This document shows positions 100 through 24,678 of a stretch of 24,678 bases of DNA, in pieces. The notes beneath the pieces were generated by a model that searched no databases, had not been told where the DNA came from, and was given only the letters and a program-made list of their open reading frames with translations. Position 1 is the first letter of the stretch. Every line of letters starts with the position of its first letter. The position numbers and the translations under genes were made by a program. The DNA lies in the IMG/VR virus record IMGVR_UViG_2690316166_000006, positions 1-24,678 of that record; one strand, 5' to 3'. Source of the DNA: a virus. Taxonomy: Duplodnaviria; Heunggongvirae; Uroviricota; Caudoviricetes.

Positions 100-110
100 G
101 TGGGGTGAAT

Positions 111-3100
111 ATGGCAGTAAAGATTTCAGGTGTACTGAAAGACGGCACAGGAAAACCGGTACAGAACTGCACAATCCAGCTGAAAGCAAAACGTAACAGC
201 ACCACGGTGGTGGTGAACACGCTGGCCTCAGAAAATCCGGATGAAGCCGGGCGTTACAGCATGGACGTTGAGTACGGTCAGTACAGCGTTATTCTGTTGG
301 TGGAGGGATTCCCGCCGTCACATGCCGGGACCATCACCGTGTATGAAGATTCTCAACCCGGTACGCTGAATGATTTTCTCGGTGCCATGACGGAGGATGA
401 TGCCCGTCCGGAGGCACTGCGACGTTTTGAACTGATGGTGGAAGAGGTGGCGCGTAACGCGTCCGCGGTGGCACAGAACACAGCAGCCGCGAAGAAGTCA
501 GCCAGCGATGCCAGCACATCAGCCCGTGAGGCGGCAACCCATGCGACTGATGCTGCAGGCTCAGCACGCGCAGCCAGCACGTCAGCCGGACAGGCCGCGT
601 CGTCGGCTCAGTCAGCGTCTTCCAGCGCAGGAACGGCATCAGCAAAGGCCACTGAAGCATCAAAAAGTGCTGCCGCTGCAGAGTCCTCAAAAAGCGCGGC
701 GGCCACCAGTGCCGGTGCCGCGAAAACGTCTGAAACGAATGCTGCAGCGTCACAACAATCAGCAGCCACTTCTGCATCCACCGCGACCACGAAAGCGTCA
801 GAAGCTGCCACCTCAGCCCGGGATGCGTCGGCTTCAAAAGAGGCGGCAAAATCATCAGAAACGAGCGCAGCCTCGAGCGCCAGTAGTGCAGCTTCCTCGG
901 CAACGGCGGCAGGCAATTCCGCGAACGCGGCAAAAACGTCCGAGACGAACGCTAAGTCTTCTGAAACGGCAGCGGAACAGAGTGCCTCCGCAGCAGCAGA
1001 CTCAAAAACAGCGGCTGCATCATCTGCCAGCGCCGCGTCAACAAGTGCCGGGCAGGCCTCAGCCAGTGCCACCGCTGCCGGAAAGTCGGCAGAAAGTGCC
1101 GCATCGTCTGCTTCAACAGCCACAACGAAGGCTGGCGAAGCCACTGAACAGGCCAGCGCAGCAGCGAGTTCTGCTTCCGCAGCGAAGACATCCGAAACGA
1201 ACGCGAAAGCGTCGGAAACCAGCGCAGAATCCTCAAAAACGGCTGCCGCATCGTCCGCCAGTTCGGCGGCGTCATCGGCATCATCTGCGTCTGCTTCAAA
1301 AGATGAGGCGACCAGACAAGCGTCAGCAGCGAAGAGCAGCGCTACGACGGCATCCACGAAGGCGACAGAGGCAGCTGGCAGTGCGACGGCGGCAGCTCAG
1401 AGCAAAAGTACGGCGGAATCCGCGGCAACGCGCGCCGAGACAGCAGCTAAACGGGCAGAGGATATTGCATCCGCCGTGGCGCTTGAGGATGCAAGTACGA
1501 CGAAAAAGGGGATAGTACAGCTCAGCAGTGCGACCAACAGTACGTCTGAAACGCTGGCGGCAACGCCAAAGGCAGTAAAATCAGCCTATGACAATGCAGA
1601 GAAACGTCTGCAGAAAGACCAGAACGGCGCTGATATACCCGATAAGGGACGCTTCCTGAACAACATTAACGCGGTCAGTAAAACAGACTTTGCTGATAAG
1701 CGTGGTATGCGTTATGTGCGGGTTAACGCTCCTGCAGGTGCAACATCTGGAAAATATTATCCTGTTGTTGTTATGCGTTCTGCTGGCTCAGTAAGCGAAC
1801 TGGCATCAAGGGTCATTATCACCACGGCAACGCGAACCGCAGGCGATCCTATGAATAACTGCGAGTTTAACGGATTTGTTATGCCTGGTGGCTGGACTGA
1901 CAGGGGGCGTTATGCTTATGGAATGTTCTGGCAATATCAAAACAATGAACGAGCCATCCACTCAATAATGATGAGTAATAAGGGCGATGATTTGCGCTCT
2001 GTGTTCTATGTTGATGGCGCTGCTTTCCCTGTTTTTGCGTTTATCGAAGATGGCCTGTCAATATCCGCACCTGGTGCTGATCTCGTTGTTAATGATACGA
2101 CCTATAAGTTTGGGGCAACAAATCCAGCGACTGAATGTATCGCGGCGGACGTTATCCTTGATTTTAAGAGTGGGCGTGGTTTTTATGAGTCTCATTCGTT
2201 AATCGTTAACGATAACTTGTCGTGCAAAAAACTTTTTGCCACAGACGAAATTGTAGCGCGTGGTGGTAATCAGATTCGAATGATAGGTGGGGAGTATGGT
2301 GCATTATGGCGTAATGATGGCGCTAAAACTTACCTGCTGCTTACCAATCAAGGTGATGTTTATGGTGGCTGGAATACATTAAGACCGTTTGCTATTGATA
2401 ACGCAACCGGCGAACTGGTTATTGGAACCAAACTGTCCGCAAGTCTGAACGGTAATGCATTAACAGCAACAAAGCTGCAAACGCCAAGACTGGTTTCTGG
2501 TGTTGAGTTTGATGGTTCCAGAGATATTACTTTAACCGCTGCGCATGTTGCTGCTTTTGCCAGAAGAGCAACGGATACGTATGCCGATGCGGATGGGGGC
2601 GTTCCCTGGAATGCCGAATCAGGCGCTTACAATGTCACCCGCTCTGGCTACAGCTATATTCTGGTTAACTTCTATACCGGAGTCGGAAGTTGCCGGACCT
2701 TGCAGATGAAGGCGCATTACAGAAATGGTGGTCTGTTCTACCGTTCTTCAAGAGACGGTTATGGTTTTGAGGAAGATTGGGCAGAAGTTTATACCTCGAA
2801 AAATCTTCCACCAGAAAGCTACCCAGTCGGCGCACCAATCCCGTGGCCATCAGATACCGTTCCGTCTGGTTATGCCCTGATGCAGGGGCAGACTTTTGAC
2901 AAATCTGCATACCCGAAACTTGCAGCGGCTTATCCGTCAGGCGTTATTCCTGATATGCGTGGCTGGACGATTAAGGGCAAGCCCGCCAGTGGTCGTGCCG
3001 TATTGTCTCAGGAACAGGACGGCATTAAATCGCACACCCACAGCGCCAGCGCATCCAGTACGGATTTGGGTACGAAAACCACATCGTCGTTTGATTACGG

Positions 3101-3509
3101 TACTAAATCCACGAATAACACTGGTGCGCATACCCATAGTTTAAGTGGCAGCACGAATGCAGCTGGTAATCACAGCCATAGAGATGGCCGTCGATTTAAC
3201 CCCAGTGTTTTTAAAGATACTTATCAATATGGTTATACAAGCTCAGGTCAAAATACTTGGGGTGTACAAGGCTCAGTAGGTATGTCTACGGGGTGGTTAG
3301 CTAATACCAGTACAGATGGTAATCATAGCCACTCACTGTCCGGCACAGCAGCATCTGCAGGTGCACACGCACATACTGTCGGTATTGGTGCACACACGCA
3401 CTCCGTTGCGATTGGTTCACATGGACATACCATCACCGTTAACGCTGCTGGTAACGCGGAAAACACCGTCAAAAACATCGCATTTAACTATATTGTGAGG
3501 CTTGCATGA
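111..3509 (+). CDS. stf: Side tail fibre protein (lambda Stf / Rac StfR-like, about 1130 aa) with a divergent central region
   Basis: ORF 105..3509. The N-terminus [26 protein letters not shown] and the Ala/Ser-rich repeats match lambda Stf from memory. The C-terminus has His-rich HxH repeats ([43 protein letters not shown]) and ends [11 protein letters not shown]. The ATG at 111 is preferred over the GTG at 105. Confidence 0.9.
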
Positions 3510-4396
3510 TTACGCTCATTCTTTCTGCACCAGTAACAGAAATGGCTGAAGCATTTAAGCGGGTATTTGCAAACGCAGATAATGTGAATATTGTCGGAAA
3601 GCCATTTGAAACAATCAGAGAATTTGACTGCATGGTAAGTGCGGCAAATAGTTTCGGCCTGATGGATGGCGGCGTTGATGCCGCCATTACCGCATTCTTC
3701 GGTACTCAGTTACAGTCCCGCGTTCAGAATCATATTCTTCGTGAATATCTAGGCGAACAGCCTGTAGGTTCTGCATTTGTAATTGAAACGGGGCATAATC
3801 ATCACCCCTGGCTGGTACATGCGCCAACAATGCGTGTTCCGCTGACAATTGACGGAACAGACGCTGTATATAATGCAACCTGGGCCGCTCTGCTTGCCAT
3901 CTTTCAGCACAATAAAAACGCAACGACAGACAGGAAAATAAAGACGGTGGTATTCCCTGCAATGGGGGCCGGATGTGGTCAGGTTCCGTTTGAAAGCGTT
4001 GCCTGGCAAATGAAGCAGGCATGGGATAACTTTAATAAGAAAACAGAATCAATTTACTGGGAATACGCACACTCCCGCCAGTCGGCAGTATTTGGCACAT
4101 ATGCATACTGTCCGGGTAATTCTGTTTGCCGTTATGCGGATACTAAATATATTGGATGCGGCGATTATCGGACGTATTGCTCACGTTCCGGGCAGTTCTG
4201 TATTAGCCATGTGCATCAGGCTGATGACGTGCTGACTAATAATCGCTCTCGCCCTGATTCGCATACACACCGGTTTAATCCAGAAAATCCCGTAGGCAAT
4301 CTCACCTCTGGCGCACATAGCCACGGAAGTAGCATCGTTATTGGTGCTCCCACCCATACGCTCAATAAACAATATTCTGTCTCTGATATTAAGTAG
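3506..4396 (+). CDS. Macro-domain (ADP-ribose binding/processing family) protein with a Cys/His-rich C-terminal region resembling a fibre tip
   Basis: ORF 3506..4396, 296 aa. Motifs [26 protein letters not shown] and [22 protein letters not shown] fit the macro-domain signature. The C-terminus ([25 protein letters not shown]) echoes Stf tip motifs ([19 protein letters not shown]). The start ATGA overlaps the stf stop, with GAGG 5 nt upstream. Confidence 0.7.
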
Positions 4397-4404
4397 AGGT
4401 GAAC

Positions 4405-4980
4405 ATGGATTTTAGAATGACTGAACAACCACGGACCATAAAAATTTATAATTTGCTGGCCGGAACTAATGAATTTATTGGTGAAGGTGATGCATACATT
4501 CCACCTCATACAGGTCTACCTGCAAACAGTACCGATATTGCACCGCCAGATATTCCGGCAGGCTTCGTGGCTGTTTTCAACGGTGATGATGCATCGTGGC
4601 ATCTCGTTGAAGATCATCGTGGTAAAACGGTTTATGACGTGGCATCAGGGGACGCGTTATTTATTTCTGAACTCGGTCCGTTACCGGAAAATGTTACTTG
4701 GTTGTCGCCGGAAGGGGAATATCAGAAGTGGAACGGTACAGCTTGGGTGAAAGATGCAGAAGCAGAAAAACTATTCCGGATCCGGGAGGCGGAAGAAACA
4801 AAAAACAGCCTGATGCAGGTAGCCAGTGAGCATATTGCGCCGCTTCAGGATGCTGCAGATCTGGAAATCGCAACGGAGGAAGAAACCTCGTTGCTGGAAG
4901 CCTGGAAAAAGTATCGGGTGTTGCTGAACCGTGTTGATACATCACTATCTCCAGATATCGAGTGGCCAAGTCAACCATAA
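4405..4980 (+). CDS. tfa: Tail fibre assembly protein (lambda Tfa family)
   Basis: ORF 4399..4980. The sequence [57 protein letters not shown] and the C-terminal [24 protein letters not shown] match lambda Tfa from memory. The ATG at 4405 is preferred, with GAGGTG upstream. Confidence 0.9.
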
Positions 4981-4985
4981 ATCAA

Positions 4986-5008
4986 TATCCCCTGCAATGC
5001 AGGGGATA
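4986..5008. terminator. Hairpin between the convergent tfa and sopB genes; likely bidirectional terminator
   Basis: Perfect 10-bp stem tatcccctgc / gcaggggata with loop aat. Flanking U-tracts are weak on both strands. Confidence 0.45.
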
Positions 5009-5012
5009 GTTC

Positions 5013-5978
5013 TTAATTATCAGTAGATTGTTCCTCTAGTAACAACTCAATTCTGCTTAGTATTTCTTTAGATATTTTGCGGCTATCAATTTTTATAGTT
5101 ACAAAATTACCTTTATATCTGGCCGTGATCCCTTCCCCATATTTTTTCTCGTCTTTTGTTTTTTCCTCGCCGCCAACCAGAACAGAGTCAGATAATATTT
5201 GTATAATCCGTGAAGCTTCTAAATCCTCGCCGTTTTTTTTAATTGCCAGAAGATGATGAGCAGCATTGCTCATGGCAGCCATGTTTTTTTTGTAAACCTT
5301 AAACAAAGAATCTCCAGCACGAGCTGACAGTTCTCCTGGATGATTGAAGATAGCTAATATATCTTTTGGTAGACCAGCTGTATTAATACAGCGAGTGATA
5401 ATATTTCTATCTATATTTTCAGCCTCGGCTAATGCTTTAACGTTACCATCAAAGTCATTTAGCTTGCGTAAGTATCTCTTTCCTCTTTCGTATGCACTAA
5501 TAGGCCTATAATCGTTACCAATTTGGGATAACCAATGCATCTGTTCATCGTCGAGATCACCAATTAAGACGCGATAGTCACATCCTGTTAATATCGCTGC
5601 TTTTCTTCTACGTGAGCCGTCAGCGACTTCAACGATTCCAGATACTTTTCTGGCGAAAGCTGGATTTTGTTGTCCAGACGTTAGAAAAGATGGGATTAAA
5701 TCGGCTAGAGAGGATTCATTTAATAAATCTTGATCGCGTTCATTACCTAGCCATACCATTGTTGCCATTTCAACTTTATCTGCGGGAATTGTCTCTAACT
5801 TAAAGTTAACATTACGTCCGCATACTGGCAAAGTTATGCTGTTACCGGTTAATGAACTCAGTTGACGTTTTAAATCACCAACCATAGGTGATACGGGCTG
5901 ATGTTCAGGGGCATGATGATTATTACTCATAATGCGATTAATATCTGGAGCATTTTTTAGAAGAGAGCGCTGTTTCAT
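5013..5978 (-). CDS. sopB: Partition protein SopB (ParB-family centromere-binding protein, F SopB-like)
   Basis: 321 aa. Segments ITLPVCGRNVNFKLE, WLGNERDQDLL, LIPSFLTSGQQNPAFARKVSGIVEVADGSRRRKAAILTGCDYRVLIGDLDDEQM, NDYRPISAYERGKRY and LFNHPGELSARAGD match F-plasmid SopB from memory. Confidence 0.93.
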   Translation of the reverse strand: MKQRSLLKNAPDINRIMSNNHHAPEHQPVSPMVGDLKRQLSSLTGNSITLPVCGRNVNFKLETIPADKVEMATMVWLGNERDQDLLNESSLADLIPSFLTSGQQNPAFARKVSGIVEVADGSRRRKAAILTGCDYRVLIGDLDDEQMHWLSQIGNDYRPISAYERGKRYLRKLNDFDGNVKALAEAENIDRNIITRCINTAGLPKDILAIFNHPGELSARAGDSLFKVYKKNMAAMSNAAHHLLAIKKNGEDLEASRIIQILSDSVLVGGEEKTKDEKKYGEGITARYKGNFVTIKIDSRKISKEILSRIELLLEEQSTDN

Positions 5979-7144
5979 TATTCGTTCTCCCAGCGAGGTT
6001 TTATTAGATCATCAAAAATTTCTCGGCAAACAGGGTCCCATATAGAAACAGCATTTCTCCATGCATTCAATGTTGAACGTTGGTTTGCTGCTTGTTCAAA
6101 TACTGTTCTCATTTTTATCTGGCCTTTACCTACTTCATCGGTAACGCGTACAACCTGACGTAATACCATTGATCCCCATGTATTTCTTATTTGTTCTTCC
6201 ATCCATCGTGATTGATTCCCTGTAGTGAGACTATATTTAGTCAGAAGTAAGCGAACGGTTGGCTCAAATCCACCTAGGTCAACGCTTTCCAATAGATCGA
6301 GAAGCATTGTGAAAAACTGTAGAACAGAAGCGTAATCAAATAATTCTGCAGGTGTAGCAACAACAATAACGTCAGCGGCACAAACAACGTTAATGGTTCC
6401 TGTACCGAGGTTCGGAGCACTATCTATAACGATAACATCGTAGTTATCCCAAACTGATTCAATAGCTGCGCGCAGCATAAGGTGTGGAGGATGAGGCAAT
6501 TTACCCTGAGCATGATATTGCATGAGATCTGTTTCTATACGATGTAAAGCTAGGCAGCTAGGGATAATGTCTAGCCCAGGCCAACATGTTGGCTTTATAG
6601 CATATTCAGCGTTATCGCGTTCTCCTAAGTAAAATGGCAGTAAAGTATCCTCGGCATGGATATGTAAATCAGGAACATAACCGTGATACATAGAGGCCGT
6701 GCCTTGAGGATCGTTACCTTCAACCAAAAGAACACGATGACCTTGTAATGCTAACCATTGAGCTTGATGTACCGCAGACGATGTTTTATAAACGCCGCCT
6801 TTGTGTGACATAACGGCAAGCACAACAGGGTTTTTATCTTGTGGTCGTTGGTTTGGGTTGCCAAAAACTGCTCGCATACTGTTGATTTGATCTATGGTAT
6901 AACCAGCACGACGTTCAATTCTTCCTCTCATTTCAAAGTCAGGTGCAGGTAAACGCCCGCTCTTCTCAGCATCTCTAATTGCTTGAGGAGTTACACCAAT
7001 TAAATCTGCTACTTCAGTTATACCCCATCGGCGGGTGATACGCCGAGCTTCAGGACTATCATCACCGAATTGAGCGATAGCAATTGCTTGGGTCATTTCT
7101 TGACCTCTCGTAACACAATCTTGCAATAACTTTTTCAAAGACAT
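5978..7144 (-). CDS. sopA: Partition ATPase SopA (ParA/Walker-type, F SopA-like)
   Basis: 388 aa. Segments KGGVYKTS (deviant Walker A), LLVEGNDPQGTASMYHGYVPDLHIHAEDTLLPFYLGE, AIKPTCWPGLDIIPSCLALHRIET, VIVIDSAPNLG and WMEEQIR..WGSMVL match F SopA from memory. The stop overlaps the sopB start by 1 nt (TAATG). GGAGA lies upstream of the ATG. Confidence 0.93.
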   Translation of the reverse strand: MSLKKLLQDCVTRGQEMTQAIAIAQFGDDSPEARRITRRWGITEVADLIGVTPQAIRDAEKSGRLPAPDFEMRGRIERRAGYTIDQINSMRAVFGNPNQRPQDKNPVVLAVMSHKGGVYKTSSAVHQAQWLALQGHRVLLVEGNDPQGTASMYHGYVPDLHIHAEDTLLPFYLGERDNAEYAIKPTCWPGLDIIPSCLALHRIETDLMQYHAQGKLPHPPHLMLRAAIESVWDNYDVIVIDSAPNLGTGTINVVCAADVIVVATPAELFDYASVLQFFTMLLDLLESVDLGGFEPTVRLLLTKYSLTTGNQSRWMEEQIRNTWGSMVLRQVVRVTDEVGKGQIKMRTVFEQAANQRSTLNAWRNAVSIWDPVCREIFDDLIKPRWENE

Positions 7145-7159
7145 ACTGTCATCTCCAGC

Positions 7160-7245
7160 TTGTAACTTTGCTTAATAATTAAATCTTTGCTTATTTCTAG
7201 CAAATTTGCATGAAAAAGGCAAAGCAAAACAAAAAACGCAAAGGC
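7160..7245 (-). promoter_or_regulatory. sop operon promoter/operator region with four CTTTGC / GCAAAG hexamers
   Basis: CTTTGC at 7166 and 7185; GCAAAG at 7219 and 7238, each pair 19 bp apart. F sopAB autoregulation uses repeated CTTTGC SopA-binding motifs. Confidence 0.55.
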
Positions 7246-7432
7246 GAATATTTGAGCTAAATCATCTTTTGTTCCCCTCCCGAAATGCATAAAACGAACA
7301 ACAATATAATCATAACTAATTGATATTTATTACCTTTTCTAAGAAAGGAAATCATATAAAACTAGAGAAACATGATAAGAATCATCAATGAGATACGTTT
7401 TCTATATTAGTTATCCCAACCTTACCAACATA

Positions 7433-7574
7433 AGAACACAAACAGAGAACATAAAAACAAAGTAATAATACAAACACAATAAAGAACATAAATAAAGAAT
7501 TAAAACAAATGTTAAATAAAAACAGTACGCAAACTGAGAACATTACATTAAACAAGAACACTAATCAAGAACAT
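7433..7574. repeat. Array of six AGAACA(T/C) direct repeats in the AT-rich region left of the telomere palindrome
   Basis: Copies at 7433, 7447, 7483, 7537, 7555 and 7568. Related GAACA motifs occur to the right of the palindrome at 7633 and 7647, and in inverted form at 7698. Confidence 0.5.
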
Positions 7575-7580
7575 AACGAA

Positions 7581-7622
7581 ACATAATTCCCCATTATACG
7601 CGCGTATAATGGGGAATTATGT
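7581..7622. promoter_or_regulatory. Telomere resolution site (telRL/telO-like): perfect 42-bp palindrome with a central CGCG, in uncleaved form
   Basis: acataattccccattatacgcgcgtataatggggaattatgt is its own reverse complement. The core CCCATTATACGCGCGTATAATGG matches the N15 telO core from memory. It lies between the divergent sopA and telN genes. Confidence 0.85.
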
Positions 7623-7792
7623 GCTGATCTTTAGAACAAAGTCAAGGAACAATTTTTAACGTTCCGATATTGTGTTTTTGTTTATTATCCGTCATTATGT
7701 TCTGTTAGTTTGTGACTAAGTTAACGCGTTATTAGTTATCTTATTCTCAAATTGTGTTACGATAATCCGAGCGGACAATCAGGAGAGGAAAG

Positions 7793-9694
7793 ATGAGCAA
7801 AGTAAAAATCGGTGAATTAATAAACTCACTTGTTAGCGATGTTGAGTCAATAGATAACTCTGACCGTCCTCAAGGGGAAAAAACAAAAAAAATAAAAGCT
7901 GTTGCATTAAAATTTAAAAATGCATTATTTAATGACAAGCGAAAGTTTAGGGGGAAAGGATTAGAAAAAAGAATTACAGCCAACACATTCAATGCCTATA
8001 TGAGCAGGGCCAGAAAACGGTTTGATGATAAACTTCATCATAGCTTTGAAAAAAATATACATCGCCTATCTGAAAAGTATCCTTTATATAATGAGGAGCT
8101 ATTATCATGGCTTTCTCTACCTGCTGCCGATATTCGCCAGAGAATGTCAGCTTTACAGGCAAAATTAAAATTAATTCTCCCTTTATCAGAAGATTTATCT
8201 AATATCAGAATTGGTGATAACAAAAGTCATAATAAGTTATTAAAATTATCAAATAAATATAAAGAGTGGCAATTCGCCATTTCTGATTTAACTAGCGATA
8301 ACTGGAAAGATAAGCGCGATTATTTATATAAATTACTACAGCAAGGATCTGCCTTACTTGAGGAGTTGAATCAGCTAAAAGTTAACCATGAGATTCTCTA
8401 TCATCTTCAACTAAGCCCTGCCGAACGCGCATCTATCCAGCAACGATGGGCAGACGTTCTGCACAATAAGAAACGTAACGTGGTGGTCATTGATTACCCT
8501 AAATATATGCAAGCTATTTACGATATTATAAATAGCCCTGCTACATTAAATAATCTAAACACTCGTTCAGGTATGGCTCCTTTGGCATTTGCACTTGCTG
8601 CATTGTCAGGAAGACGAATGATTGAGATTATGTATCAAGGTACATTTACTGTTTCTGGTAAGTATACCGTTGATTTTTTAGGCCAAGCAAAAAAAAGAAC
8701 TTCTGATGATATAACCAGAAAAATATATACATTATGCGAAGCAAAAACATTTGTTTATTTAATAAATGTACTTCGCTCATGCCCAGCAGCATCTGATTTT
8801 GATGATGTCGTTAAAGGTTATGGAGATAACGACACACGCTCTGAAAACGGACGGATTAATGCCATATTAGCAAAGGCTTTTAACCCGTGGGTTAAATCAT
8901 TTTTCAAAGATGACCGCCGTGTTTATAAAGATAGTCGTGCTATTTATGCCCGTATTGCGTATGAAATGTTTTTCCGCGTAGATCCTCGTTGGAAAAACGT
9001 AGATGAGGATGTTTTCTTTATGGAAATTTTAGGCCATGACGATGAAAACACTCAATTACACTATAAGCAATTCAAGCTGGCCAACTTCTCAAAGACATGG
9101 AGGCCAAATACTGGAAACGAAAATACCAGGCTGGAAGCATTGCAGCAGCTTGATGACGAAATGCCAGGATTCGCCAGAGGAGATGCCGGAGTTCGTCTGC
9201 ATAACACAGTTAAGCAGCTGGTAGAGCAGGACCCCTCTATAAAAATCACGAACAGCACTCTAAGAGCATTCAAATTTAGCCCTACAATGATTAGTCGATA
9301 CCTGGAATTTGCTGCTGATGCTCTGGGGCAATTTGTTGGCGAAAATGGACAATGGCAGCTGAAAATAGATTCTCCAGAAATCGTTATGCCTGACGAAGAA
9401 GAGCTGGAAGCAATACCTGAACAGACGGATGAATTATCAGAGGATGACGATCTGGATGACGACGAAATTGAGATAGAGGAAGAGGAAGAGGAAGAGGAAG
9501 AGAGCGTAGAAGAACAGCAACCGCCCGCGCCTTCTTCACCTGTATCTAAGCCGGTATTTAAGCCTGTGAGAAATATTGGTGATGGCTCATACGTTGTTGA
9601 ATTTCATTATAATGGCCAGAATTATGCTTGGTCCGGCAGTGCAAACAGCCCTATATCAGCAATGCAGTTAGCATGGCTGACATATTTCGGATAA
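7793..9694 (+). CDS. telN: Protelomerase TelN (telomere resolvase, tyrosine-recombinase-like)
   Basis: 633 aa. The N-terminus MSKVKIGELIN..DRPQGEKTKKIKA..KNALFNDKRKFRGKGL.KRITANTFNAYMSRARKRFDDKLHHSF and internal NTRSGMAPLAFALAA.SGRRMIEIM, RINAILAKAFNPWVKSFF and YARIAYEMFFRVDPRWKNVDEDVFFMEILGHDDENTQLHYKQFKLANFS match N15 TelN from memory. AGGAGAGG precedes the ATG. Confidence 0.95.
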   Translation: MSKVKIGELINSLVSDVESIDNSDRPQGEKTKKIKAVALKFKNALFNDKRKFRGKGLEKRITANTFNAYMSRARKRFDDKLHHSFEKNIHRLSEKYPLYNEELLSWLSLPAADIRQRMSALQAKLKLILPLSEDLSNIRIGDNKSHNKLLKLSNKYKEWQFAISDLTSDNWKDKRDYLYKLLQQGSALLEELNQLKVNHEILYHLQLSPAERASIQQRWADVLHNKKRNVVVIDYPKYMQAIYDIINSPATLNNLNTRSGMAPLAFALAALSGRRMIEIMYQGTFTVSGKYTVDFLGQAKKRTSDDITRKIYTLCEAKTFVYLINVLRSCPAASDFDDVVKGYGDNDTRSENGRINAILAKAFNPWVKSFFKDDRRVYKDSRAIYARIAYEMFFRVDPRWKNVDEDVFFMEILGHDDENTQLHYKQFKLANFSKTWRPNTGNENTRLEALQQLDDEMPGFARGDAGVRLHNTVKQLVEQDPSIKITNSTLRAFKFSPTMISRYLEFAADALGQFVGENGQWQLKIDSPEIVMPDEEELEAIPEQTDELSEDDDLDDDEIEIEEEEEEEEESVEEQQPPAPSSPVSKPVFKPVRNIGDGSYVVEFHYNGQNYAWSGSANSPISAMQLAWLTYFG

Positions 9695-14900: not shown

Positions 14901-15899
14901 TTTCCGGTCATTATCCAGTGCGCAGGTGATTTTTGCCGCCGGGTACATGTTTACCAGTTGTTCCACAACATGAACCATGTTGTTAGCGGATACAGCGACA
15001 ACCACAGCGTCAAAGCGTTTATCTTTTTTCGTGGCAAGCCAGATGGATGCACCAGTAGCAAAACCTTCTGTAACAGCGATGTTTTGCGCCCCTTTCAGCT
15101 CACCGATAACAAAGCAGGCACCGACGAAATCGCCGCTGGTTACGGCGCTGGTCTGGTATTTTCCACCTTGTTTGTCGATTCGCTGCCAACCAACAATACG
15201 ACCATCGTAACGACCGTCCAGGTGAGCCAGAGGGATAGCCATATACGTGGTTGGCCCCCTGCTCCATTTTGCGCTGTCGTGACTGGTCACGCGACGCACA
15301 TCACACGAATTAAAAACGTCACGAATACCTTTTTTAATCGCATATGGCCATGAGCCGTCTTCTGCAGGAGCATGTTCCCAAGCACTGTGGAATGCCAGCC
15401 ATCCCAGCAAACGTTCATGGTCCATTTGGTTGTTTTTCAGGTCATTAATTCGTTTTTGTTCTTCACGGCGACGACGTGCTTCGGCCTGACGTTCTATTCT
15501 TGCCCGTTCTTCTTCCGGTTGTGCGACCACGGTCGCATTATTCCGTTGTTGCTCACGGCGATATTCAGAAAACAGGAAGGAGAAACCGCTCCATGAGCCA
15601 GCATCGCTGCCTTTATGGACGAAGTTAATGAACGGGTAATCAATCCCTTTGCTGTGTTCCAGCCGGGAGTAAATTTCTACGCGTCCTTTGAGGCTCTTTT
15701 CGAGAGCTTCTGGGGATGTTTTATTGTATGAAGAGTAACGCTCAACACCCCCGCGAGGGTTGAGTTGGATGTTGTCGGAACAGGCAGACCAGTTGATACC
15801 AGCCATCTGTGCCAGCTCGGTTAGTTCATCCCGTGCTGCTTCAATTAGCGAGAACGGATCGCTGCCAAAGCGATCCGCATAGAAATCGTTTAATGTCAT
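11904..15899 (-). CDS. repA: Replication protein RepA: large primase-helicase (N15 RepA / P4 alpha-like)
   Basis: 1331-aa ORF. Toprim-like primase motifs (VTEGFATGASI, AVSANN, ALDNDRK) and Walker A GMGSGKST. Size and position next to cB match N15 RepA. Confidence 0.88.
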   Translation of the reverse strand: MTLNDFYADRFGSDPFSLIEAARDELTELAQMAGINWSACSDNIQLNPRGGVERYSSYNKTSPEALEKSLKGRVEIYSRLEHSKGIDYPFINFVHKGSDAGSWSGFSFLFSEYRREQQRNNATVVAQPEEERARIERQAEARRRREEQKRINDLKNNQMDHERLLGWLAFHSAWEHAPAEDGSWPYAIKKGIRDVFNSCDVRRVTSHDSAKWSRGPTTYMAIPLAHLDGRYDGRIVGWQRIDKQGGKYQTSAVTSGDFVGACFVIGELKGAQNIAVTEGFATGASIWLATKKDKRFDAVVVAVSANNMVHVVEQLVNMYPAAKITCALDNDRKSATEGKGNTGLRTGYEILSKFNDVRCVYPTFEDDPQMECSDFNDLHKLRGLRETARQLFATANRLKTGTDLLSLTLNRLKTIKRDNRRTFAKELLRAVDIGMLTCPVPNSPSDLFNMFCIVLREIGLENIYRATVKDHIARRLNKKCRIAQAPRSFSERITDPNKRPQHITYKRFETSVMTDDVLKYVQSLQGIVIVRAGMGSGKSTGLLRPLMHSSERGISVAHRVSLIGGLWEMMTEGKGVKADILHYQDPGYQEMAPYASKLTICINSIVKNCWQPLMRQHDYFGFDEATQGLRAVISGRAMENPVAVFNTLIDALARTEQHPIMVDADANDLLVDLAELAMKRREELGLPAWLQIHVIELPVDVRNRETGEPIRVFYTEKDRIMTEVVKAVSNGEKIMLATDSSTFAEDVTATLRMHFPGKKFLCVNQKNKPEPEVEAFTNQPKKMVKKYDGLIYSPSISSGVSIEQKHFDRHFGMFCGEVVPSDAVQMLRRDRTAKEFIIGFDKARAKRETDPQKIERAFVQALLATAGMNGELTDVVFDGDRISMGVANTDFTRMKIKAAAIEASARNDYASNMICIMHSDGYKVSPLATDYAANDIGKDLRKEARDIVWEQTLDLHLNTETPQESEREELLKKRALTLEEQAKLVRWDIENELKLPVEEGTLKFYFDGARDKVRRYETMLLDEVTARRYDREEAAINFTYAYRQAGQWQYFVVTAMTREQADDVFKTKFPGIIDYKVKATPTVEVGARGFYALKSATLRQYFIDCGINPETMTGEATQERLKFARDNLMTAERRDLLNNVLHIGGFMTPKGKPKVPEALFKNICDSLGLKTGKRRGRDGDKRPTLRFVEPESAAFMLDILVQRQKDGLTLKTRKAEKTAIEMDRDLDLNIYMDDKTRSTNEQVQNAPHSVISEALAVLPVAVPESWAMSALSGEELATMSSWSSASIAMTFASLYLTEFMDHLSSNELRRLREYITGNSSCSYEEQGAFYG
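15278..15291. repeat. 14-bp palindrome cgtgactggtcacg inside repA (GTGACYRGTCAC family, copy 2)
   Basis: Perfect inverted repeat sharing the 12-bp core with the sites at 10601 and 20994. Confidence 0.4.
15522..15537. promoter_or_regulatory. sopC-like centromere candidate TGCGACC-AC-GGTCGCA inside repA
   Basis: 16-bp palindrome with the same architecture as the F sopC core TGGGACC-AC-GGTCCCA. One of three copies in the window. Confidence 0.5.
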
Positions 15900-16741: not shown

Positions 16742-16763
16742 AGCTTAATCATAAATGATCTTC

Positions 16764-16805
16764 TTATAGCTGGCTATAAAATTTATTTATTATAGCTGGC
16801 TTTAA
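16764..16805. promoter_or_regulatory. Immunity operators: palindrome TTATAGC-TG-GCTATAA (16764-16779) and a second copy TTATAGCTGGCTTTAA (16790-16805)
   Basis: Two related 16-bp sites 26 bp apart between cB and cro. A TATAAT at 16821-16826 lies 6 bp upstream of the cro ATG. Confidence 0.6.
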
Positions 16806-16832
16806 ATGCGATTTATTGCTTATAATAACCGC

Positions 16833-21501: not shown

Positions 21502-21789
21502 TCAATAGACGGCATTAATATTAATCGTTGCACCGCATGCTTGGGCATATTTTGATAAAGTTTTCATGCTTGCCCCTAAAGGATTGCTTTCCAGGCGGCT
21601 GATAGCTGACGGGCGCAATCCCATTCGTTCAGCCAGAGCTGACTTCGTTAAACCTGCTCTTTCCCTCATTTCGTATAACATTTCGACCATCTCCAGCTCT
21701 TTATCGGCCTCTTCATATCCTTTGATGGCTTCTGGAGTGTTGAGAAGTTTTTCTTTTACTTCGTTAAACGGGATGCCTTTCGCTTTCAT
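21502..21789 (-). CDS. HigA-like antitoxin (XRE-family HTH)
   Basis: 95 aa. LTKSALAERMGLRPSAISRLESNP is an HTH typical of HigA-type antitoxins. Sits downstream of, and overlapping, the toxin gene. Confidence 0.75.
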   Translation of the reverse strand: MKAKGIPFNEVKEKLLNTPEAIKGYEEADKELEMVEMLYEMRERAGLTKSALAERMGLRPSAISRLESNPLGASMKTLSKYAQACGATININAVY

Positions 21790-22100
21790 CAGTTCATCTC
21801 CTTCAGGCGAGTTCTGGCGATTTCGATAGCCTTCACCGGTGTTTTCTGTGTCTTTTTTACAAATGCATGCAATAGATAAATTTCGTTACCAGTCGCGTAG
21901 GCGTACAGCGTTCTTGCGATGTTTTTATCCCCTACTCGTAGTTCAAAAAGCCCTCCACCTATTACACGGCTATGGGGCATCTTCAGTTTGTTGCCTTCCT
22001 TCTCCAGTCGCTCAATTAATCTGGTCATGCGACCTCGCAAATCATCTGGTAGTTCAAGCAGTTCATCCAGTGCTGCAGGGTGGGTTATCACGTTAAACAT
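21789..22100 (-). CDS. HigB/RelE-superfamily toxin (phage Gp49-like family)
   Basis: 103 aa. LFELRVGDKNIARTLYAYATGNEIYLLHAFVKKTQKTP matches the Gp49-like killer-protein pattern. Toxin-first order is typical of higBA. Confidence 0.7.
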   Translation of the reverse strand: MFNVITHPAALDELLELPDDLRGRMTRLIERLEKEGNKLKMPHSRVIGGGLFELRVGDKNIARTLYAYATGNEIYLLHAFVKKTQKTPVKAIEIARTRLKEMN

Positions 22101-22158
22101 ATTATAGCCTCCATAGCCACAAAATACACCAAAACAAGAAAAAAGCGCAAATTAAAAA

Positions 22159-22265: not shown

Positions 22266-22487
22266 ATGAATTATCAAGGTAACGAAAAAATGCGCGACGA
22301 CGTTGCGGAGATAGCTAACGAACTGTATGAGTTGTGGCAGAAGGTTGAACGTTTCGAAAAGGAATATGGTTTCAACAGTACCAACCTGGCAGACCGACTG
22401 GCTGGTCGCTTAGTTGGGACTATGGGGCCAAAACTGGCTGAGTTGAACCGCTTTATGGCTGATGTTGATTTCCAGTTTCAAGATTGA
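22266..22487 (+). CDS. Small hypothetical protein (73 aa)
   Basis: ORF 22248..22487. The ATG at 22266 is preferred, with GGAGG upstream. Confidence 0.45.
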   Translation: MNYQGNEKMRDDVAEIANELYELWQKVERFEKEYGFNSTNLADRLAGRLVGTMGPKLAELNRFMADVDFQFQD

Positions 22488-22731: not shown

Positions 22732-22753
22732 CTGTGCGACCACGGTCGCACAG
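22732..22753. promoter_or_regulatory. sopC-like centromere candidate CTGTGCGACC-AC-GGTCGCACAG
   Basis: 22-bp palindrome, the longest of the three copies, just after the stop of the preceding ORF. Confidence 0.5.
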
Positions 22754-22837
22754 CACAAAAACGAAAAAGCTTGGCAAAATTACGGTTTTTAGTTATTGTT
22801 TTGTTAAGTTGGGTTTTTTGTACCCAACAGCCAACAA

Positions 22838-22861
22838 GCCGCCTTTATGGCGGTTTTTTTG
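22838..22861 (+). terminator. Rho-independent terminator
   Basis: Stem ccgcc / ggcgg with loop tttat, then seven T. Preceded by a hairpin ttgggt-tttttg-tacccaa and followed by a 10-bp stem gcaggacaag / cttgtcctgc (22878-22903). Confidence 0.5.
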
Positions 22862-24440: not shown

Positions 24441-24678
24441 TGCAGTCATCATTACGCAAAGCTGTCGCAACTGCTATTGGTGGCGGGGCTATTGCCATAG
24501 CATCTGTGCTCATCTCTGGTCCGAGCGGCAACGATGGTCTGGAAGGTGTGAGACATAACCCCTACAAAGACATCGTTGGTGTATGGACTGTATGTTACGG
24601 GCATACAGGAAAAGACATTATGCTCGGTAAAACGTATACCGAAGCAGAATGCAAAGCTCTCCTGAATAAAGACCTTGC
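24437..24678 (+). CDS. SAR endolysin (phage 21 R-like lysozyme), 3'-partial
   Basis: [80 protein letters not shown] matches phage 21 R from memory, including the Gly/Ala-rich SAR helix. ATGA overlap with the holin stop. No stop within the window. Confidence 0.85.

Follow-up and report, generated by a model that had tools for sequence, protein, structure and literature searches.

We report that the sopA-sopB operon at positions 5013-7245 of a 24,678-nt stretch of viral DNA (IMG/VR record IMGVR_UViG_2690316166_000006, hereafter the window) very probably serves an N15-like linear plasmid-prophage of E. coli as its partition system, a type Ia ParABS (Sop) system that relies on single dispersed centromere sites and not on a tandem array beside the operon. 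The original prediction, made from the sequence alone, had proposed an F-type operon without an adjacent sopC array and hence the N15 arrangement, with centromere sites scattered over the genome. It is supported by the closer relation of both proteins to N15 than to F, the sequence of the sites, their synteny with those of N15 and phiKO2, and a context of telRL, protelomerase and RepA. Nothing in the sequence contradicts an N15-type assignment.

The operon is intact and lies on the minus strand, with a 1-nt overlap between the sopA stop codon and the sopB start codon:

5978-7144, minus strand: sopA (parA), encoding a type Ia Walker ATPase of 388 amino acids (aa)
5013-5978, minus strand: sopB (parB), encoding a predicted centromere-binding protein of 321 aa
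SopB motifs: ParB box DGSRRRKAA (residues 120-128); helix-turn-helix (HTH) recognition helix DRNIITRCIN (residues 190-199); R220, equivalent to R219 of F

SopA comprises a predicted DNA-binding N-terminal extension of ~107 aa, with a weak match to a MerR-type HTH at residues 42-68, and a deviant Walker A motif (KGGVYKTS, residues 115-122) within a region that matches Pfam AAA_31 and CbiA from residue 108. Its score of 734 bits exceeds the 725-bit cut-off of the NCBIfam SopA equivalog NF010259. SopB matches Pfam SoPB_HTH (PF18090, E = 7.8e-25), passes both the NCBIfam F-type ParB equivalog NF010252 (406 bits, cut-off 274) and TIGR00180 (125 bits, cut-off 58), and has as its closest solved structures the F SopB PDB chains 3mky, 3mkw and 3mkz, matched over SopB residues 152-316. 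A ParA Walker ATPase with an N-terminal extension and a ParB with an HTH and an arginine-rich ParB box place the pair in type Ia. The predicted resemblance to the F proteins was confirmed by BLASTP (74% identity for SopA, 50% for SopB), although alignment to both plasmids shows that N15 is the nearer relative (93% and 73%); the SopA alignments are gapless, and the one with F is full-length. Residues R191, R196 and R220 of SopB, invariant in a five-way alignment, are the conserved counterparts of R190, R195 and R219, which contact DNA in F SopB (PMC2910045, PMC3597684).

At the place where F carries sopC, the window has only a hairpin, as had been predicted:

4986-5008, both strands: bidirectional terminator hairpin with a 10-bp stem and a 3-nt loop, given a terminator score on each strand

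The hairpin fills the 32-bp gap between sopB and a convergent tail-fiber-assembly gene (tfa, Pfam Caudo_TAP) that ends at 4980, and the 56-nt stretch that includes it (4970-5025, sopB sense strand) has a folding energy of -19 kcal/mol (z = -4.7). A terminator stem-loop is annotated at the corresponding position of N15 (22085-22113). Tandem Repeats Finder (minimum score 30) detected no sopC-like 43-bp array in the whole window, whereas in two positive controls, F and the Klebsiella F-like plasmid pKP58-1, the same tool recovered 10.7 copies of 43-bp units containing TGGGACCACGGTCCCA, ~90 bp past sopB. The only arrays found in the scans of the window and of the related plasmid pG749_3 were coding repeats in tail-fiber genes and an operator-like 26-bp repeat. 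The latter, 2.3 copies of the unit TGATTTATTATAGCTGGCTATAAAAT at 16756-16817, lies between a cB-like repressor gene and cro and probably represents repressor operators.

A search for the F site with mismatches brought out three perfect 16-bp palindromes, TGCGACCnnGGTCGCA, starting at 15522, 17965 and 22735:

15522-15537: candidate centromere site 1, TGCGACCACGGTCGCA, inside repA, toward its 5' end, 362 nt past the start codon
17965-17980: candidate centromere site 2, TGCGACCGTGGTCGCA, 211 nt past the stop codon of Q, the antiterminator gene
22735-22750: candidate centromere site 3, TGCGACCACGGTCGCA, starting 7 nt past a gp51-like open reading frame (ORF)

The 18-mer GTGCGACCnnGGTCGCAC is the sequence of the natural N15 centromere sites, the inverted repeats (IRs) IR1-IR4 (PMC7205306, Table 4), and sites 1, 2 and 3 match it with 1, 0 and 0 mismatches, respectively. 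Three 18-mers at no more than one mismatch from the N15 consensus compare with 0.03 expected, and none of 100 shuffles reached three. The F-type site TGGGACCnnGGTCCCA, searched over the whole window at up to three mismatches, yielded only these three N15-type sites and a three-mismatch chance match at 22415; all window sites carry C at position 3 and G at position 14 and are therefore not F-type sites.

All three sites are syntenic, within 0-27 nt, with three of the four sites of N15 and phiKO2. The repA site lies 362 nt into the gene in the window and 365 nt in both N15 and phiKO2, the site after Q follows at 211 nt versus 184 nt in both, and the gp51-side site at 7 nt in the window, 6 nt in N15 and 7 nt in phiKO2. 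Across the three elements, the only change in either 7-bp arm is one outermost base in N15 site 1; at site 3, only 31 of 80 ungapped flanking positions are identical to N15. The flanks of site 2 are unusually conserved among the three elements (57-63 of 80 positions) and the site falls within a 100-aa ORF called in related contigs and overlapping the end of Q, so this site may be under coding constraint. Counted along the window, sopA is separated from sites 1, 2 and 3 by 8.4, 10.8 and 15.6 kb, respectively; the region that holds them serves replication, immunity and late regulation.

Could the palindromes serve mainly in SopB-dependent transcription control of phage genes (repA, Q-dependent late transcription), with partition depending on one of them or on something else? 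Site 3 lends this idea some weight: 20 nt separate its end from a promoter-like TTGGCA-17-TATTGT (22771-22799) that has a terminator (22836-22856) behind it, and this looks like the late promoter region. The layout is that of N15, where IR3 (41125-41140) stands 21 nt before an annotated -35 at 41162, with a terminator then at 41229-41250. We nonetheless regard a mainly regulatory role as unlikely. With the centromere site of N15 repA, SopAB-dependent stability keeps loss per generation under 0.1% (PMC2847241); N15 SopB forms foci on the four N15 IRs when these are joined, while F SopB cannot use N15 sites (PMC7205306); and a regulatory role is in any case compatible with a centromere role.

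The window represents only about half of a ~46-kb genome, and for the region past either end we infer the content from relatives, namely PhiR46_1, pG749_3 and p19KM1803_4, which cover all or most of the length, and eight metagenome or genome contigs, the best of which is 99.8% identical to the window. Five single sites are present in all 11 close relatives, the window's three among them: PhiR46_1, p19KM1803_4 and pG749_3 have exactly five, and the same five recur in the eight near-identical contigs. The two extra sites are 220 bp apart, after a DUF4406 gene past the lysis cassette, at what would be ~1.1 and ~1.3 kb beyond window position 24678. The full site set of the element is thus probably five, two of them past the right end, and not the four of N15. 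The sop locus of pG749_3 is 98.4% identical to that of the window, with an identical SopA (100%) and a SopB that differs at one residue. The first 50 kb of pG749_3, the only relative so scanned with Tandem Repeats Finder, contain no sopC-like array, and no further SopB-type site occurs in the remainder, which is mostly an inverted duplicate.

These data bear on the idea that the system is F-like after all, with a tandem sopC-type array lying outside the 24.7-kb window and the three palindromes being secondary or regulatory. The incomplete coverage of the genome, and the presence in relatives of two more sites only 220 bp apart past the right end, speak for it. An array just outside the window, the observation on which the original prediction was said to hinge, is nevertheless very unlikely, judging from the relatives, because they hold five single sites and pG749_3 lacks an array; moreover, the place of F's sopC is taken by a terminator and a convergent gene. 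We give this idea hardly any credence. The pG749_3 record itself (NZ_CP014491.1) is 62.6 kb long, is labelled 'circular' and contains inverted duplications of the sopAB/tail-fiber end and of the telN end; the assembly seems to have read through the hairpin telomeres of a linear plasmid of ~46 kb, and several other oversized E. coli records may have the same origin.

Upstream of the operon, the window encodes the hallmarks of a linear plasmid-prophage:

7581-7622: telRL, a 42-bp perfect palindrome whose core CCATTATACGCGCGTATAATGG is common to N15 and whose outer arms differ
7793-9694: telN, encoding a protelomerase of 633 aa that matches four protelomerase Pfam domains

Beyond telN, the window continues with repA, encoding a protein of 1331 aa, the cB/cro/Q region, a RelE/ParE pair and the lysis cassette. 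Its right part shares 97.5% identity with Escherichia phage PhiR46_1, whose linear record has its ends (telL, telR) at the middle of the telRL palindrome. Together, the telRL palindrome, the protelomerase, RepA and the position of the PhiR46_1 ends identify the window as an N15-like linear plasmid-prophage in phage order. TelN would cut telRL at its center, so that in the prophage the right telomere lies ~0.45 kb from sopAB, with the centromere sites all on the opposite arm.

The interval between the sop promoter and telRL contains an AT-rich block with six direct RAGAACAY repeats (7432-7574), and these could in principle be the cis site, as in type Ib and type II systems, which have iterated centromeres upstream: six of the seven window copies cluster there, all on the plus strand within a 28%-GC spacer, and GAACA copies occur in the same interval of PhiR46_1, pG749_3 and N15. 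This is most improbable, since the HTH of SopB is of N15 type and cognate-type palindromes are present elsewhere, the phiKO2 interval has no GAACA yet that phage has the same Sop system and palindromes, and the repeats abut telRL. They are more likely telomere or protelomerase related, and may be telomere-proximal protein-binding repeats.

This N15-like lineage is common in E. coli. Although a whole-window megablast against complete E. coli genomes returned no identical record (the best covers 81% at 96.5% identity), ~46-kb plasmids of the N15-like kind are found in many of these genomes, and the methylase protein occurs in 2943 index blocks of a contig collection. An N15-like group combining lambda-like structural genes with phiKO2-like repA, sopAB and telN has been described from Escherichia, Shigella and Salmonella isolates (bioRxiv 10.1101/2025.09.12.675607; PMC12042878).

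We then turn to the control region of the operon. Perfect copies of CTTTGC occur there at 7166 and 7185 (plus strand) and at 7219 and 7238 (minus strand). Across the window the hexamer shows no overall excess (21 copies, 21.5 expected), but four copies within 78 bp are not a chance cluster, as none of 1000 block shuffles that kept local composition reached four in any 80-bp span. With positions counted in the sopA sense direction from the A of the ATG (position 0), the features are:

7166-7243, minus strand: putative SopA operator, six hexamers on a 19-bp lattice
7243-7238: hexamer 1, CTTTGC, at -99
7224-7219: hexamer 2, CTTTGC, at -80
7209-7204: hexamer 1', GCAAAt, at -65, one mismatch
7205-7200: hexamer 3, aTTTGC, at -61, one mismatch
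7190-7185: hexamer 2', GCAAAG, at -46
7171-7166: hexamer 4, GCAAAG, at -27
7175-7203, minus strand: putative sop promoter, with -35 TTGCTA (7203-7198), a 17-nt spacer and -10 AATTAT (7180-7175), read by eye
7156-7153, minus strand: GGAG, the sopA ribosome-binding site, read from the sequence

The inverted pairs 1-1', 2-2' and 3-4 each have a 28-bp spacer, and a single dyad at -60.5 gives the whole hexamer set its symmetry. Boudsocq et al. (PMC8465637) proposed that a 19-bp lattice with 28-bp-spaced inverted pairs, found in the F, N15, phiKO2 and pLVPK promoters, is a platform for three overlapping ParA dimers, a model whose tests so far concern F only. The window operator shows the lattice and spacing published there for F-family promoters, and in a five-way promoter alignment the hexamer columns are invariant and the spacers variable. 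The hexamers at -99, -80, -61 and -27 correspond to those at -100, -81, -62 and -28 in F. The claim that the promoter carries four CTTTGC/GCAAAG hexamers as in F therefore holds for their number but not for their identity: the perfect copies are 1, 2, 3 and 4 in F (three direct, one inverted) and 1, 2, 2' and 4 in the window (two direct, two inverted), which lacks a perfect hexamer 3 and has 2' instead. N15 has the same lattice, with hexamers 1, 2 and 3 perfect and 2' and 4 at one mismatch. With a perfect 2-2' pair and near-perfect 1-1' and 3-4 pairs, the window could carry the most symmetric version of the proposed three-dimer SopA operator among those compared; for this reading and that of the recognition helix below, taken jointly, we put the chances at about even. 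Hexamers 3 and 2' overlap the putative promoter. A consensus promoter scan did not report this promoter because its weak boxes match only 8 of 12 consensus positions, and we therefore infer the placement of the boxes.

Site specificity has been mapped to residues 177-198 of F SopB, and a single base in each half site distinguishes the F site from the N15 site (PMC2910045). Over this segment the window SopB differs from F at only five positions, and the recognition helix accounts for just two of these, S189D and K191N (F numbering); N15 shows four further differences. A DRN helix goes with TGCGACC sites in all four N15-type systems compared (the window, PhiR46_1, N15 and phiKO2), and an SRK helix with TGGGACC sites in both F-type systems (F and pKP58-1). 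As the window helix is otherwise F-like yet its sites are N15-type, and as DRN and SRK covary with the site across these six systems, the residues flanking R190 are candidate discriminators. The lineage could accordingly be a natural hybrid, with a helix F-like apart from two residues and sites of N15 type, in which S189D and K191N would discriminate C from G at site position 3. N15 is not mentioned by Pillet et al. 2011 (PMC3177203).

Gene identities, the geometry of the operator, the sequences and synteny of the sites and the lack of an array in the window are seen directly. By analogy with N15 and F, from which we extend DNA binding, autoregulation, stabilization and any side effect of SopB on late transcription, the system would function as follows. 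The two genes would be co-transcribed from a weak promoter, which SopA dimers in the ADP or apo form would repress at the CTTTGC lattice, probably as three overlapping dimers on the 28-bp-spaced inverted pairs, with SopB as co-repressor. SopB dimers would recognize TGCGACCnnGGTCGCA through the helix DRNIITRCIN and R220; loading at each site and spreading outward, they would build partition complexes, and these would stimulate nucleoid-bound SopA-ATP so that sister plasmids separate. The centromere would consist of the three single sites in the window and very probably of five genome-wide: within repA, behind Q, ahead of the late promoter and past the lysis cassette.

Set against known systems, the window shares with N15 (sopA, gene 28; sopB, gene 27) the gene order and orientation beside telRL and telN, the terminator directly past sopB and the site sequence, but N15 has four sites where the window lineage has five. 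Its structural genes are lambda-like, unlike those of N15; DNA identity over the locus is only 73%, with third codon positions saturated, and the N15 SopB has the helix DRNIVNRCMN and a C-terminal third only 52% identical to that of the window. With F sopABC the window shares the type Ia operon, the 1-nt overlap of sopA and sopB and the CTTTGC operator on a 19-bp lattice, and the 16-bp palindromic sites of the two are the same except at positions 3 and 14, which mirror each other. What sets the window apart from an F-type locus is that it has neither an adjacent array nor a site of the F type paired with an SRK helix; instead it shows, at the sequence level, single palindromes dispersed far from sopAB on a linear plasmid-prophage, as in N15. 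TGCGACC palindromes are also found in phiKO2, PhiR46_1, pG749_3 and p19KM1803_4. The four sites of phiKO2, three of them at the window's gene positions, are annotated 'putative plasmid partitioning site'. The tail-fiber module beside sopB varies from element to element. Descriptions of the dispersed arrangement in N15 reportedly date from 1999-2001 and its annotation in phiKO2 from 2004, and loci nearly identical to this one are already in public records, where the products are named SopA and ParB. The significance of our findings is therefore mainly one of correct annotation: a common E. coli and Shigella N15-like lineage keeps scattered single-site centromeres, whose coordinates we supply and which, in the public records of relatives, are annotated only for phiKO2. 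The hybrid recognition helix and the symmetric operator would also be natural variants useful for work on ParB specificity and ParA autoregulation.

Identity of sopA to its N15 counterpart is 91%, 97% and 44% at codon positions 1, 2 and 3, and its GC content at third codon positions is 28.5% versus 51.8% in N15. A protein 93% identical with third positions only 44% identical indicates that the two genes diverged long ago under strong purifying selection and that base composition shifted. The whole sopB-sopA-telN block (5013-9694) is AT-rich, at 38-43% GC versus 45% for the window and 48% for repA. By comparison with PhiR46_1, SopB is a mosaic, since residues 1-150 are 99% identical and residues 229-321 only 48%; DNA similarity to PhiR46_1 ends at 5299, within sopB. 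The C-terminal third (residues 229-321; window 5013-5300) corresponds to the region for self-association and dimerization in F.

Two further features of the element lie outside the Sop system. Between the side tail-fiber gene (105-3509) and the tail-fiber-assembly gene (4399-4980), a 296-aa ORF at 3506-4396 encodes a Macro domain (Pfam PF01661, E = 4e-18); this tail-fiber/Macro module is ~96% identical to modules of several lambdoid phages. On the minus strand, a RelE/ParE-family toxin gene (21789-22100) adjoins an HTH antitoxin gene (21502-21789), and this toxin-antitoxin pair (21502-22100) constitutes a second plasmid-stability module, comparable to N15 genes 48 and 49.

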